Below, piece after piece: positions 6,001-12,000 of a stretch of DNA of 64,000 nucleotides. A program made the position numbers. The DNA is from Escherichia coli (lineage in GTDB: Bacteria > Pseudomonadota > Gammaproteobacteria > Enterobacterales > Enterobacteriaceae), in assembly GCF_048403405.1 (NCBI RefSeq), contig NZ_CP183129.1. One strand, given 5' to 3'. Each line of letters begins with the position of its first letter. Within the stretch, counting starts at the first letter, position 1.

Positions 6001-9000
6001 TCCCTGACCAGTTTTTCCGCCTGCTGGCGAACCTGCGCCAGAAACGCCTCACCACATGCCTCAAGTTCATCGCGCCCGATGTAGCTGATTGCCGGTCCCT
6101 TCCAGGTCTTGTCGAAAACAGCAATAGCACCAGCGAAGAAAGCGCCTGTCGGCACCTGCTTCTCATCTTTCGGGATAAACCAGGCAGGCAGTTCAAAACC
6201 AATACGCCCGCGAATAAAAGCAATATGATCTGCATCTTCCGGCCACCACACTTCGCTGGTGGCAGCTTTGATCAGGAAAACATAGCGCCCGCCTTTATCA
6301 CGCATGGCACTGGCATGTTTCATGATGTAACGCATGCCGGTGATGTATTGCCCCTCATGCTGACTGGCGCGGCTGTATGGGGGATTACCAAAGGCAGCAC
6401 CTTTAAGCTCCGCAAGACGTTCTGACCAGTCATGCGCCAGCGCGTTGTCTTCCGCCGTGTAATACGCGGTACATTTGGCGTTATCACCGTCAGTAAACAG
6501 ATCCAGGACAAACGGGCCAAACAGGGTGTTAATTCCCCAGAAAATGTTATCCGGCGTGCGCCACTGATCGCCCACTTCCTTCAGTTCATGGGCTGGTTTG
6601 TTCCGCAGCTCCACCAGCTCCTGGCAATATTTATTACTCATTAAGCCCCCACGTAATTCCCTGACAGATACCACTCATCACCCGATACAGCGCGCTTGCT
6701 GCTTTTCCGTAAGCACCGCTCACGACGTGCCAGAAAATTGTTTCGTTCTGGCTGGGAGTGGCTTTCACGGAATGCCGCCATCCACACGGTTGCAGCACGA
6801 CGGTATAAGCCCCTGGACTCCAGTTCTTCAGCCTGGCGGGTCAGGCACAAAATCACCCGGGGATCGTTAGTGCCGACATAGAAATTGCGCACAGGTCTGG
6901 TTTCACGAACTGGTTGTGGTTCCGGCTCCTGCGCTCTCTCAGTCAGGCGCGGGAAATGTCTGCGTGTATATCCTTCACAACGGTGAGCCACACGCCCACT
7001 CTGACGTAACTTGCTTGCAGACTGCAGAACGCGCTGCCGTGAGTAACCTGCAAAAGCATCCGCAATGTCTCCGGAAGTACACCCCGGATGGGCTTCAATG
7101 AATTTCTGAACTTCATTCAAAAGACTCATGATTATCCCCTGAATCCTGCCGGGATCTGGCTGTAGTCCACGTTGTCGTAACTGGCTTTGAAGTACGGGTC
7201 CTCGCGTCTGGCTGCAGATACCGCAGGAACTTCCCAGGATTCTTCGAAATGACGATCCGGACCAAAGAACGTGACAGCCTGTTTCACAAATTGTGTGCCG
7301 CTGTTACCCATCGCAGATACCCAGCCCGCGTAGCGTTTCACACCTTCCAGCATGGTTTCGGGTTTTACCCCCTCATTCAAACGGGCTTTCCAGGCTTTGA
7401 AGGCTGCAGATTTTGAATTGCCACCAGCACGTTTGGGGTATGCCAGCCATGCCTGCTCAAACTCCGGAGAGTATTCCGGTCGGTTTGAACGAACTCGCAC
7501 AGACTCATCAGCAGATGCACCAACAGCTATTGGTTCATTGACTGGTTCTTTGACTGGTTCAAAAGAGTGACTGGTTCTGGGTGAATCTCCTGCACCACCC
7601 CCTGGTGCAACTCCTGCACTACCTGGTGAATTTGCTGCACCAGATAGTGAATTATTTGCACTACCCCCTAGTGAATCTCCTGCACCATCAAGATGAAGGA
7701 GATAGATATTACTTGAGTTACCTTTTTCACCTTTCCGGGTGACTTTTTTTACCAGCCCGGAATCACAAAGGGCCGCAATATGATTCATCACAGAACGTTT
7801 GCTAATCTCGCACTGGTCAGCAATATGCTGGTAGCTGGGCCAGCACTCACCCTGATCGCTGGCATTATCAGCCAGCTTGATCAGAACCAGTTTTCGCAAT
7901 GGATTACCCACTCGAATTTTCATCGCTTTAACCATCAGCTCCATACTCATGCTGCACCTCCGAGATGCTTCATGTTTTTTCCGGAGCAAAAGGCTATAAG
8001 CGGCATACTGATGCGGTAATTACGGCCCAGCGGTTCACAAATCACCTTCTGACATTCACGGTCAACCAGGCTAACACGTAGAACATGCCCTGCAGGCGTG
8101 GTGTACCACTGCCCAACTGTAGGAATTGATGTTTTTTTACGCTGAAGCAAACGGCAAATATTGAGGATCAACGGATTAAGCATGACGATGCCCTCCGCTG
8201 ATATTCAGGAGACGGTGAATATGAAAATTAGCCTTATCCGCCAGACGAATACGTTCAGCCTGCAAGTTAAGAAGGGTTTCTACCAAAACCTGATGCGCCT
8301 GCGGATCCGAAAGAGTTACCTTGCGCAGAGCACGTAGTGCAGTTGTTACATAACTGAGTTTATGTAAGTCTTCATCATTCAGACGAGTGAGGGCTGGGAC
8401 AGTAGCCATGATGGCAGCCTCCGATAACAGTGAATTACCTTCACCACCGGAAACGCCAATTTCGCTGGTGGTGAACTGAACGGGGTTGGCGTAACCGGCG
8501 TTATCGGAAACCGGCGCACCTTTCGGTGCCCCCGTCCAGCCCACCATAATTTGGGTGTGCACAGACGCAGACGATAAAAAAGACGCTGGCGCGTCATATA
8601 TCGCCGATAACATTTCCAGGACGCCAATCCCGTCACCCGCTTTATAAGGTGCCTGAACAGTGTAACGTCCCGGAATGGCAGAATCAATGTGCTGGTGGTC
8701 CTTCACACTCAACAAAATCACGCCTGAATTTCCACAAAGGACTAAAGCACTCATGCGGGTAGTCTTTGCGAAGATAGATAACGCGCTGTGTTTCTGGTTC
8801 CCAACGAATAACATGGACATAAAGCCCTCTTCCGTCACGAAACCAGCGGTTAAGTTCCCGCACAACTCGCCCCCCACAGTCAGGTAAAGTTCTCTGTGGT
8901 TACTTACAGCCAGGTAATTTGGTAATCTGCATTCATGCCGTAACAACAGGTGTTCAGCGACACTGACCACCAGCTGTTGCGACAAACGGTTATTTGCCGT

Positions 9001-12000
9001 TAAACTGTTCATGCGTTAGTTTCTCCACAGACACAAAACGCCACGACGCCCGGAGCTGCACACTCGCGGGCGTCACTCTTTTCTGGAGCGCAAAAGATTT
9101 TGTAGACCAGTGCTGCATGCTCTTGGAGCTTCGAAATTGACAGATACAACTCATCATTAATTGCTGTCTGCTCGTGTGGCTCCACGACCCCATCTTCGAT
9201 TGCCGAACGAATCTGCTTTGAGTAATTCCCGATCTGTTCGATGACTTCCAGCAGGCGCTGGTTTATATCGGCGTTCTCTACTTCCTCAATTTCAGGAAGC
9301 GATACGAACACCCCACCAGCAGACTGTGCGACAGCATCCGCAATGTAGTGAGTGCCAGCCGCGCGCTGTAAAACCATTGCCCATCCCAGCGGGAAAATCT
9401 GATCGCCATCGGCACGAAGGCGGTTAAATAATGCGTTCTCTGTTACATCCAGCCAGTCAGCTGCTTCAGCGTAACCACCCGGCAACGCTGCGATAGTTTT
9501 TCTGACAGCTTTCACGTACCACTCAGGCTGTTTTTCTACTTTCCAGTGATACTTACCCACGGTTAGCCTCATCGTTCTGTGGTTAAAAATTGAAGGTGTT
9601 CTGTTAATCTTTCGGATAGATATCCGGTCTTAAGTCAGATTTCGTAATTGCACCTGACGTGCATTGCTCAAGTTTTTTCGCCAGCACAAAACTGGCTTTT
9701 TTATAACCATTGAAAACCAGCCGTAAGTAGCCAGGTGTTGAGCCAACTTTTCCGGCCAACTCGCCCTGCTGTTCTTTGGTTAAAGAGTCCCAATACGCTT
9801 TCATACAATATGTACCTCCGGTATACATATTACATGATTGAAATGAACCTTCAAGATACTTGTACCTTATCGGTACAAAGGTTTTAATTTCGTTATGAAA
9901 ACAATCCATGACATCCGGCGGTCTAACGCCAGAAAACTGAGAGATGGTGTTGGCGGAAATTCATCCTTTGCCACCATGATTGATCGCGAGCCAACCCAAA
10001 CCAGCAGGTTTATGGGGGATGGCGCTACTAAAAATATCGGTGACAGCATGGCACGGCACATCGAAAAATGTTTCGACCTGCCTGTCGGATGGCTTGATCA
10101 AGAACACCAGACAACGAACATCACAAAAAAACCTGATGTTTCAATCACTAACAAACAAATAACGTTAGTCCCTGTCATATCATGGGTACAGGCCGGAGCA
10201 TGGAAAGAAGTTGGCTATTCTGAGGTTGATTTGAGCACAGCAGAAACGTATCCCTGCCCTGTACCCTGTGGCGAAATGACTTATATCTTGCGGGTGATTG
10301 GTGATTCAATGATTGATGAGTACCGCCCTGGAGACATGATTTTTGTTGATCCCGAAGTCCCTGCCTGCCACGGTGACGACGTTATTGCATTGATGCACGA
10401 TACAGGCGAAACCACCTTCAAGCGATTGATAGAAGATGGAACACAGCGTTATCTCAAAGCATTAAACCCAAACTGGCCTGAGCCTTACATTAAGATTAAC
10501 GGTAATTGCTCTATAATTGGTACAGTGATTTTCTCGGGAAAACCAAGAAGATACACAATAAAGGCCTAATCAATATTTATGAACCTGCTTCGGCAGGTTT
10601 TTTTATACTTGACAATGTACCCATGAGATACATAATGTATCCAAAAGAAACATGAGGCAGGCAAGATTCAAACAAAATTTGGTTGTAACACGGCGTATGG
10701 CACATGCGTCGTTAGCGGTCTGGGGACGTTAAAGGGGACAATCCACTTCTTGCTCGGGCAAACAAACCAGGTAGTCGGAATGTGCAAGTCAATGATGATG
10801 CTGATAAGACGCCTAACCAGCGTGGCGATCCGGTTTGACGCCTGGGAAGAGACCAGGGTGCAACGATGAGGGCATTTATGGAGCCGCGACAAAGTGTGGT
10901 GCCGTAACTGGCTAAGTGCTCTCAGCGTTGTGGTAATCCGCGAAATGGCGCGGCGGTAAGTATGGCGGGGTTACTCTTTCCCCGTTGAGGACACCGGATT
11001 GTCAGGTTGACCATACGCCTGAGTGACAACCCCACCACAACAGCCACTGCTTTGGCGGTACCAGTTTGTACACTTGCTTCCGGCTGGTACCGCTCTTTTT
11101 ACAAAACAGAGAAGAGCATCACCGGACGACAGGCTCATAACCCAATCCATCCGGGCGGCTGCCACCGCAGGTGTTCTTCTCTGTTTTGTGGAGAAACCAA
11201 CCGACCTTGCAGGGTCGATATGATGAGGAGCAGCAAAATGGCTAGCGAACGCAGTACTGATGTGCAGGCATTTATCGGGGAGCTGGACGGCGGCGTATTT
11301 GAAACCAAAATCGGCGCAGTTCTCAGTGAAGTCGCTTCCGGTGTGATGAACACGAAAACCAAAGGTAAGGTCTCACTCAACCTGGAAATCGAACCATTTG
11401 ATGAGAACCGTGTGAAAATCAAACACAAACTCTCATATGTTCGCCCGACTAACCGCGGGAAAATTTCCGAAGAAGACACCACCGAAACGCCGATGTATGT
11501 CAATCGCGGTGGTCGCCTGACTATTCTGCAGGAAGACCAGGGACAATTACTGACTCTTGCCGGTGAACCTGACGGAAAACTACGCGCAGCAGGTCATTAA
11601 TATCGTTCTTAATTAACTGATTATTTATCTCATCACTGAATATCTTTATATAGTGAGGACTTATTATGTCTCAGAACTTAGACGCAACCGCAATTAATCA
11701 AATCCATGCCCTTATTTCTGCTCAGGGTGTTAATGAAATTATCAGTAATATTGGTGCCGATGCTGTGGCATTGCCTGAGAATTTCCGCATTCATGATCTG
11801 GAAAAATTTAATTTAAATCGCTTCCGTTTCCGTGGTGCGCTTTCCACTGCCAGCATCGATGACTTTACCCGTTATTCTAAAGATCTTGCAGATGAAGGCA
11901 CCCGCTGCTTTATCGATGCTGATAATATGCGTGCCGTCAGTGTACTTAACCTGGGTACTATTGATGAACCAGGTCACGCAGATAACACCGCCACTCTCAA

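Follow-up and report, generated by a model that had tools for sequence, protein, structure and literature searches.

RNAs of the C4 family are processed by RNase P from a longer transcript. In the immI region of phages P1 and P7 (c4, icd and ant), the elements a' and b' have counterparts a1/b1 upstream and a2/b2 at the ribosome-binding site (RBS) of the first downstream gene, and variation in specificity underlies heteroimmunity. A module of this kind is described here in a 64-kb window of Escherichia coli DNA (contig NZ_CP183129.1). All coordinates refer to this window, the whole stretch that was analyzed, and all operon genes are on its minus strand unless stated. With a probability of roughly 70%, an SfV/e14-like lambdoid prophage has its early-right operon here, and between the cII-like and replication genes of that operon lies an RNA immunity module of phage P4 type. 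The order on the minus strand is a cro-like gene, ymfL, a DUF4222 gene, an internal promoter, isrK, C4, the sites a2/b2 over the RBS of a 77-aa open reading frame (ORF77), a 78-aa open reading frame (ORF78) and a replication initiator gene. The window shares with immI an RNA of the C4 family, through its match to Rfam RF01695. It differs in having no icd or ant homologue, in the position of the module inside an early-right replication operon, and in an intrinsic terminator of the isrK type between a1/b1 and C4.

In phage P4, the counterpart of IsrK is seqA and that of C4 is the CI RNA. This equivalence is drawn in PMC3632133, according to which lambdoid Salmonella prophages carry the system, and also in PMC4825925. 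The passages of PMC10111431 that deal with P4 eta, citing Forti et al. 1999, describe a long open reading frame (ORF) spanning the constitutive promoter together with the CI and seqA sites, with Kil as its truncated form. According to these passages, eta is fully translated only from the upstream late promoter, and its translation prevents termination. In the P4 sequence, a 214-codon ORF (8812..8168 in P4) has three consecutive Met codons at or overlapping the orf88 stop and ends as the 65-aa Kil. The P4 ORF annotated as 'cI gene product (AA 1-137)' gives a Phage_ASH match (E = 8e-16) and overlaps the Rfam C4 match of P4, with an isrK match upstream.

The window resembles P4 in having the same two Rfam families in the same order, and an identical Shine–Dalgarno (SD) and start sequence, GGAGGCTGCCATCATGGCTAC. 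In both, a b'-type loop is complementary to a site just 5' of it, a long ORF runs from the stop of the upstream gene across the promoter and both RNAs to a short protein, and the module lies upstream of replication genes. Nevertheless, the recognition sequences differ, P4 having its own loop–target pair, CCUGUGAA/UUCACAGG. P4 is a satellite, whereas the host element in the window is a lambdoid phage that has a CII-like gene and a protein-based CI/Cro switch. The upstream coupled gene is ymfL here and the alpA-like orf88 in P4, and the terminal protein of the window is an unrelated 77-aa ORF that is not Kil/Icd-like. In addition, the window has an extra DUF4222 gene out of frame within the long ORF.

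In the isrK-orf45-anrP region of Gifsy-1 (PMC4825925), IsrK supplied in trans activates translation, and the output is an antirepressor that switches on antQ. Gifsy-1 is likewise a lambdoid prophage, with a promoter PisrK, an IsrK with a leaky terminator, a processed C4-like RNA (STnc1160) and an RNA-controlled downstream gene. In Gifsy-1, however, a separate 45-codon ORF lies over the C4-like RNA. A separate orf45 of this kind was ruled out in the window, where the reading frame of the AUG at 8547 continues without a stop into ORF77. The module of the window also differs in preceding a replication gene.

An ORF scan of the locus gave 9572..9009 (187 aa), 9012..8176 (278 aa) and 8183..7947 (78 aa), which a sequence-only reading had taken for three translationally coupled genes in the cII and replication-initiator positions. 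The overlaps are as that reading had them: the first two ORFs share an ATGA at 9012-9009 and the second and third share 8 nt, ATGCTTAA, at 8183-8176. A further ATGA overlap (7950-7947) joins the 78-aa ORF to the next gene. A cro-like gene (9804..9604) precedes the block, and a cI/LexA-like repressor gene lies opposite on the plus strand (9895..10569). The ORFs are thus open, tightly coupled and part of an early-right operon, but the idea that each is a single ordinary protein gene did not hold. The 187-aa ORF does occupy the cII position; none of the three occupies that of the initiator, which is 7950..7132. The 278-codon ORF, whose product the same reading singled out as the largest uncharacterized protein, is not a conventional protein gene: within it lie a DUF4222 gene in another reading frame, a putative internal promoter, and two Rfam RNA genes together with an intrinsic terminator. 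Several E. coli chromosomes carry the block with 100% identity, and Shigella phage SfV matches it at 96.8% in orf36-orf38. Among 5426 complete E. coli genomes, 2997 matched some part of the 2-kb block at the DNA level and 472 contained at least 80% of it.

The C4 RNA (8464..8551, minus strand), resembling the P4 CI RNA, matched RF01695 with 82.8 bits against a gathering score of 45 (E = 6e-16, model positions 1-87 of 87). It folds into a 17-bp closing stem around two hairpins, with b' (8510-8500) in a loop and a' at 8492-8486; the stem starts with G and the 3' end is an invariant ...ACCA. The score, the stem and two hairpins with their compensatory changes, and the complementarity of the recognition elements all place it in the family. 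By analogy with described C4 RNAs, it would be processed from a longer transcript and repress in trans.

The isrK (P4 seqA-like) RNA occupies 8576..8652 on the minus strand and matched RF01394 over its full length with 55.4 bits against a gathering score of 50. Together with a promoter of its own and an intrinsic terminator this identifies the RNA, the margin over the threshold being small. The terminator, found in an independent terminator scan, consists of a stem at 8595-8582 followed by U6 and lies within the long ORF. An internal sigma-70 promoter upstream of isrK is likely from the conservation of its elements (PisrK, 8659..8687, minus strand; the putative equivalent of P4 PLE). It has a –35 element TTGATT (8687-8682), which includes the DUF4222 stop codon, a 17-nt spacer, a –10 element TACACT (8664-8659) and a predicted start site near 8652, in agreement with the 5' end of the Rfam isrK match. 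Variation among 86 unique relatives is lowest at the TTGA and TAnAnT positions, which are invariant in alignment A2. A promoter consensus scan did not report PisrK, which matches at 8 of 12 positions and falls below the threshold of that scan.

The octamer CCGAUAAC in the C4 loop (b', 8507-8500) has two complementary sites of sequence GUUAUCGG, b1 in isrK (8611-8604) and b2 (8428-8418). The latter abuts and overlaps the GGAGG of ORF77, an SD sequence at 8422-8418. The single-stranded a' element, ACGCCAA, is complementary to UUGGCGU both in isrK (a1, 8627-8621) and downstream of C4 (a2, 8459-8453). The downstream target sites thus span 8418..8459 on the minus strand. A 256-nt transcript was predicted to fold more stably than its shuffled versions (z-score –5.1), with b' pairing with b2 in cis and sequestering the SD sequence. 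The octamer GTTATCGG occurs in the 64-kb window at the three module sites and at two others, about the chance expectation. Rfam matches to STnc50, rsmX, mir-875, a CRISPR repeat and sR42 were all below gathering score and were dismissed as chance.

To collect relatives, viral contigs were scanned with the invariant SD–start sequence as a 20-nt pattern, which gave the 86 unique upstream regions; 47 distinct ones were aligned. Seven relatives found by similarity already showed a1/a'/a2 and b1/b'/b2 changing together. In the 47 aligned sequences, the 27 pairs of the C4 stems were paired in 100% of cells, and eight of them had changes on both sides. Pairing reached 99.4% of cells for a1–a' (6/7 pairs compensatory), 97.1% for b1–b' (7/8) and 94.6% for b'–b2 (7/11), so that 20 of the 26 recognition pairs were compensatory. 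An exact reverse complement of a' was found downstream in 46 of the 47. When the partners were slid by 1–3 columns, only 35–49% of cells were paired, and none of 500 shuffles reached the observed covariation score. The sequences comprised 8 types of a' and 13 of b' in 20 combinations, and the natural types of the recognition element include GTTATCGG and GATCAAGG. As judged from sequence comparison, this three-way covariation marks an antisense-RNA immunity system whose specificities diversify.

Some viral contigs carry more than one copy of parts of the module. Two copies of the SD–ATG target lie about 0.9 kb apart in L070 (7808-8693), L118 has two ATG sites about 860 nt apart, and in L115 a 197-aa ORF from 3678 onward contains a second Ash-like stretch. 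This suggests tandem immunity modules.

A mechanism can be proposed by analogy with P4, P1 and Gifsy-1. In a lysogen, the internal promoter would give short IsrK, ended at its own hairpin, and read-through precursors would be processed to C4. C4 would pair with a2/b2 and occlude the RBS of ORF77, and the untranslated RNA would be terminated by Rho polarity, leaving ORF78 and the replication initiator off. A superinfecting phage with the same RNA type would be blocked in like manner. Upon induction, transcripts from pR would be translated through ymfL, and the ATGA coupling would carry ribosomes on through the 278-codon frame over isrK, C4 and a2/b2. These ribosomes would melt the terminator and the antisense targets, making pR transcripts insensitive to RNA immunity, as eta is held to do for PLL transcripts in P4. 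The a1/b1 sites of IsrK might titrate C4.

ORF77 (8176..8409, minus strand; 77 aa, predicted helical) stands in the position of P4 kil and P1 icd and would be the first gene under control of the RNA switch. It has a GGAGG 8 nt before its ATG at 8409, its start is invariant in the relatives, and its variable sites fall 4/1/10 over the three codon positions. The output of the switch might be a lysis–lysogeny effector, with ORF77 acting as an antirepressor or on the host like P1 Ant/Icd, P4 Kil or Gifsy-1 AnrP, and not replication control. This would leave the anatomy described above intact, differing only in what is regulated. Consistent with it, the same MAT... start leads in sister loci into Icd-like division inhibitors (NCBIfam NF033153) or antirepressor-like genes of the Rha family; the IsrK of Gifsy-1 controls an antirepressor; and both ORF78 and the replication gene have SD sequences of their own. 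ORF77 itself, however, gave no match to the NF033153 Icd/Kil-like model, unlike its positional counterparts in L014, L027 and L080, and none to Rha; its family is tiny, with almost no relatives, none of them detectable outside the cassette. Moreover, the P4 module lies upstream of replication genes and controls them, and here the replication gene follows directly, coupled by overlapping stops and starts. An effector output is therefore regarded as a serious but rather unlikely alternative to replication control.

The long frame (8176..9012, 278 codons, minus strand) is the analogue of P4 eta by its geometry. It starts upstream of the internal promoter in ATGA coupling with ymfL, extends through this promoter, the isrK and C4 sequences and the target sites, and is in frame with ORF77, the short gene in which it ends. 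Its codons 117-210 match Pfam Phage_ASH (E = 5.1e-17), and both RNA genes lie inside this stretch on the same strand. In the relatives, differences in the Ash frame were spread over the codon positions as 411/386/367, and the ratio of non-synonymous to synonymous change (pN/pS) was 0.85, compared with 0.87 and 0.94 in the other frames. Neither codon-position bias nor a distinctive pN/pS thus pointed to protein-level selection on the Phage_ASH domain, and within the long frame a coding signature was seen only in the last 77 codons. As the Ash frame lacks such a signature, the conservation that defines the Ash 'domain' is at the level of RNA.

Nevertheless, stops are avoided in the Ash frame. 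In the 243-nt length class (42 unique sequences), the frame in register with the ATG had no stop and no column with a polymorphic stop, compared with 15 and 16 such columns in the other frames. In the 246-nt class (15 sequences), the counts were 0 versus 5 and 8. The opportunity was comparable, with 25 possible stop-creating single mutations in the Ash frame and 29 and 31 in the others. Seven observed alleles would create a stop on the consensus background, but each was accompanied by a second change and none was a stop in its own context. The distance from the C4 AUG to the ORF77 ATG varied in multiples of 3 only, and in 81 of the 86 unique relatives the 98 or more codons that precede the ATG were free of stops, which takes the open frame past the internal promoter. 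By analogy with P4 eta, the 278-codon frame is probably translated for the passage of ribosomes and not for its amino-acid sequence, and its translation would prevent premature termination.

It could be argued instead that only ymfL, DUF4222, ORF77, ORF78 and the RNAs are functional, and that the frame upstream of 8409 is never translated, its openness being an inherited accident of a conserved, G+C-rich RNA. The RNA is indeed highly conserved, so that absence of stops could be inherited, and the Ash frame shows no amino-acid constraint. Three unique relatives are closed just upstream of the ATG, and in L010 the other frame over DUF4222 is also open, with nothing downstream. Against this stand the stop columns of the other frames at comparable opportunity, the compensated stop-creating alleles and the length variants in multiples of 3, as well as the account of P4 in the eta passages of PMC10111431, where translation of the homologous frame prevents termination. 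An accidentally open frame is accordingly considered improbable.

The DUF4222 gene (8684..8863, minus strand; 59 aa, GTG start) lies out of frame inside the long ORF. Its product matched PF13973 (DUF4222; E = 1.2e-13) and PHROG 1343 (E = 2.5e-36), and the profile match together with the coding-frame evidence assigns it to this family. In place of a single 278-aa gene, the NCBI annotation pipeline PGAP calls a 181-aa 'ash family protein' (8721..8176) and, in the other frame, a 59-aa DUF4222 protein (8863..8684). Between the window and L010, differences in the DUF4222 frame fall 5/7/30 over the codon positions, with a pN/pS of 0.13 as compared with 2.63 in the 278-aa frame. The corresponding values are 19/13/37, 0.31 and 1.47 against K-12 e14, and 3/4/13, 0.14 and 3.37 against L086. 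Overall, pN/pS over the overlap ranged from 0.13 to 0.36 in the DUF4222 frame and from 1.5 to 3.4 in the 278-aa frame, with substitutions concentrated at codon position 3 of the former, which is position 2 of the latter. In the overlap with the long ORF, purifying selection acts on the DUF4222 frame. DUF4222 also stands alone in L007–L010: in L010 it comes after a Rha gene, and in L007–L009 it runs directly into the replication gene. What had been read as codons 50-110 of a 278-aa protein is therefore a shadow of the DUF4222 gene. The first 49 codons (9012-8866), checked for a YmfM-like peptide, gave an ambiguous signal: variable sites were distributed 10/9/6, and pN/pS against L086 was 0.40, the other frames giving 0.44 and 1.13. 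In L010, an opposite-strand pair resembling a toxin–antitoxin system (TumE family and an HVO_A0114-like DNA-binding protein; 1990-2638) is inserted between DUF4222 and the isrK–C4 module.

That the 278-aa (or 181-aa) ORF really encodes a regulatory protein with an Ash domain, for instance a transcriptional regulator or antirepressor, to which the RNA matches are secondary, has in its favor the Phage_ASH match, the open frame, the 'transcriptional regulator' labels of PHROGs 3960, 821 and 995, the PGAP name and a literature in which Ash is a protein domain of unknown function (a 2021 study of Shiga-toxin (Stx) phages). It is nonetheless very improbable: the Ash region shows no codon-position bias and has the same pN/pS in this frame as in the other two, the RNA stems and the three-way co-varying sites fully explain the conservation, a promoter and a terminator lie inside, the N-terminal third has a pN/pS above 1 because another gene is selected there, the PHROG families start at differing residues (61, 103 and 156) as is typical of over-called ORFs, and the founding family member is the P4 'cI' ORF, while the literature treats the P4 immunity factor as CI RNA.

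Extending the interpretation of the long frame as a path for ribosomes, the 'Ash domain' across enterobacterial prophages and satellites might be a frame kept open only for ribosomes crossing the IsrK–C4 RNAs, so that induced transcripts escape RNA immunity, and here one that also tolerates an out-of-frame DUF4222 gene. This generalization is offered tentatively, at slightly less than even odds.

Several points weigh against a P4-type switch before the replication gene. The isrK score is only 5 bits over its threshold. The dynamics, that is promoter use, C4 processing, Rho-dependent termination and translation of the long frame, are carried over from P4, P1 and Gifsy-1. Control of ORF78 and the replication gene rests on presumed transcriptional polarity, because both have their own SD sites, and the sign of the IsrK effect here is uncertain, because IsrK of Gifsy-1 activates in trans. 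The relatives are phylogenetically related, and the stop-column counts are therefore not independent events. The long frame is not universal, the stop in the three closed relatives lying 6 codons before the ATG. Finally, its start is uncertain between ATG 9012, ATG 8754, GTG 8721 and GTG 8706, the first 49 codons being ambiguous.

The K-12 prophage e14 (ymfL-ymfM-oweE) allows the overlap to be followed in a related operon. It has an orthologue of ymfL, to which a frame with the same MNSLT start is joined by an ATGA, and its DUF4222 gene is 64% identical to that of the window and in the same relative frame. In contrast, e14 has no isrK, C4, ORF77 or ORF78, and DUF4222 runs directly into a remnant of the replication gene. 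In ymfM, purifying selection acts on the 53 N-terminal codons (pN/pS 0.33 against L020), whereas the first 49 codons in the window are weakly similar and not clearly constrained.

In the e14 locus (L003), positions 4823-5181 are homologous to 9012-8684 of the window, and ymfM (112 aa, 'cell division inhibitor') overlaps the DUF4222 ORF out of frame. This ORF is unannotated in K-12; it encodes 59 aa (5002..5181) from a TTG start with GGAG 8 nt upstream. Differences between K-12, L007 and L008 in the overlap are all silent in DUF4222 and non-synonymous in ymfM, and only the first 53 codons of ymfM look selected. In the main-text passages of the ymfM preprint, the whole ORF was cloned and frame-specific mutants are not mentioned. 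SfiC filamentation may be caused by the product of either the ymfM or the DUF4222 frame. As a corollary of the generalization about the Ash frame, the DUF4222 frame may encode all or part of the SOS-inducible division inhibitor that has been ascribed to e14 ymfM.

Annotation of related loci is inconsistent. In L004 (1589-2737) and L005 (1738-2737), which are near-identical, PGAP calls a single 382-aa 'Rha family' protein from the ymfL stop in one and DUF4222 plus a 296-aa Rha protein in the other. For the real Rha gene, the probable start in both is the conserved ATG of MAT..., downstream of the C4 target. The RNA module was found in many Shiga-toxin phages, annotated as 'ash family protein', 'Rha/Ash', 'transcriptional regulator' or 'antirepressor'. 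An over-called ORF can thus mask a nested gene and two RNA genes, and correcting this widespread annotation is the main value of the analysis. Read as a P4-type RNA switch before a replication gene, the module predicts a second, RNA-based layer of immunity in these lambdoid phages and many heteroimmune RNA specificities (8 x 13 element types seen), and it bears on the gating of replication in Stx-phage and SfV-like prophages. The IsrK–C4/seqA–CI system, its occurrence in lambdoid prophages and the eta mechanism are already published. New are its placement between the cII-like and replication genes in a phage of SfV/e14 type, the DUF4222 gene nested in another frame, the evidence from sequence comparison that stops are kept out of the Ash frame although its amino acids are unconstrained, and the catalogue of specificity types.

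The gene at the head of the block, of ymfL type, encodes a CII-family regulator (9009..9572, minus strand). The 187-aa protein matched the NCBIfam equivalog NF041471 (YmfL) with 170 bits against a cutoff of 90, Pfam Phage_CP76, the phage-186 CII family (E = 1.6e-14), and PHROG 101, a CII-like transcriptional activator (E = 7.5e-73). The curated-cutoff match and the position after cro make it CII-like; like 186 CII it follows a cro-like gene, although the Phage_CP76 match is moderate and no CII-dependent promoter came to light, none having been sought. This clear homology to known regulatory proteins removes the gene from the set that the sequence-only reading had called unassigned. The same reading recognized no P-loop, helicase-loader or initiator motif in the three ORFs, and this was borne out: searches of Pfam, NCBIfam and PHROG gave none, nor any homology to lambdoid O/P-like replication initiators or helicase loaders. 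The gene likely starts at GTG 9560, giving 183 aa; this start is favored because GAGG lies 6 nt upstream and because PGAP and the SfV annotation both use it. A sequence search of the PDB detected no solved relative of the 187-aa protein and gave no meaningful match otherwise. PADLOC found no defense-system match among five products, and NCBIfam had nothing for the 278-, 78-, 77- and 59-aa products.

ORF78 (SfV orf38; 7947..8183, minus strand) has its own SD sequence (GGAGGG), is ATGA-coupled to the replication gene and matched PHROG 1153 (E = 6e-42), with no Pfam match. Its variable sites fall 11/8/20 over the codon positions, and it is coding by the same test as ORF77. The family comprises 41 clusters, from enterobacteria only. 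Comparison of ORF78 with DUF4222 by hhalign gave a probability of 63.5% (E = 7e-5), and the PHROG cross-match had an E of 0.008. The AlphaFold model of ORF78 (predicted local distance difference test score, pLDDT, 80) has an N-terminal helix and a small beta-barrel, with strands and helix in the same order as in the model of DUF4222, itself a small beta-barrel (pLDDT 87). From these alignments and models, ORF78 appears to be a distant relative of DUF4222, and the e14-type and window-type layouts are alike in having a DUF4222-like gene directly before the replication gene. Both models share their top fold matches, KOW (Spt5/NusG), Tudor and SH3, which are non-significant (E at least 0.017) and belong to common folds. 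A function like that of NusG-KOW was not accepted for either protein, the fold matches being non-significant; the likeness is curious in that both genes adjoin a termination-controlled switch.

The replication initiator gene (7132..7950, minus strand) encodes an O-like helix-turn-helix N-terminus and a DnaD-like C-terminus, and its product matched PHROG 270 (E = 7e-89) and many other initiator PHROGs. The SfV homologue is annotated 'replication protein'. Further downstream in the same operon are a short LexA-family protein of 108 aa and a PerC-family regulator (yfdN), at 5665-5991 and 6641-7129 (both minus strand), followed by Dam methylase and RusA. The LexA- and PerC-family regulators would also be gated by the RNA switch if polarity extends that far. 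Elsewhere in the window, 1319-1758 (minus strand) gave a strong Rfam match to the cspA thermoregulator 5' untranslated region (156.7 bits), and a cold-shock protein gene therefore lies within or adjoins the prophage region. Three tandem tRNA-Leu(CAG) genes at 20064-20385 (plus strand) may mark the chromosomal flank or the prophage attachment region.

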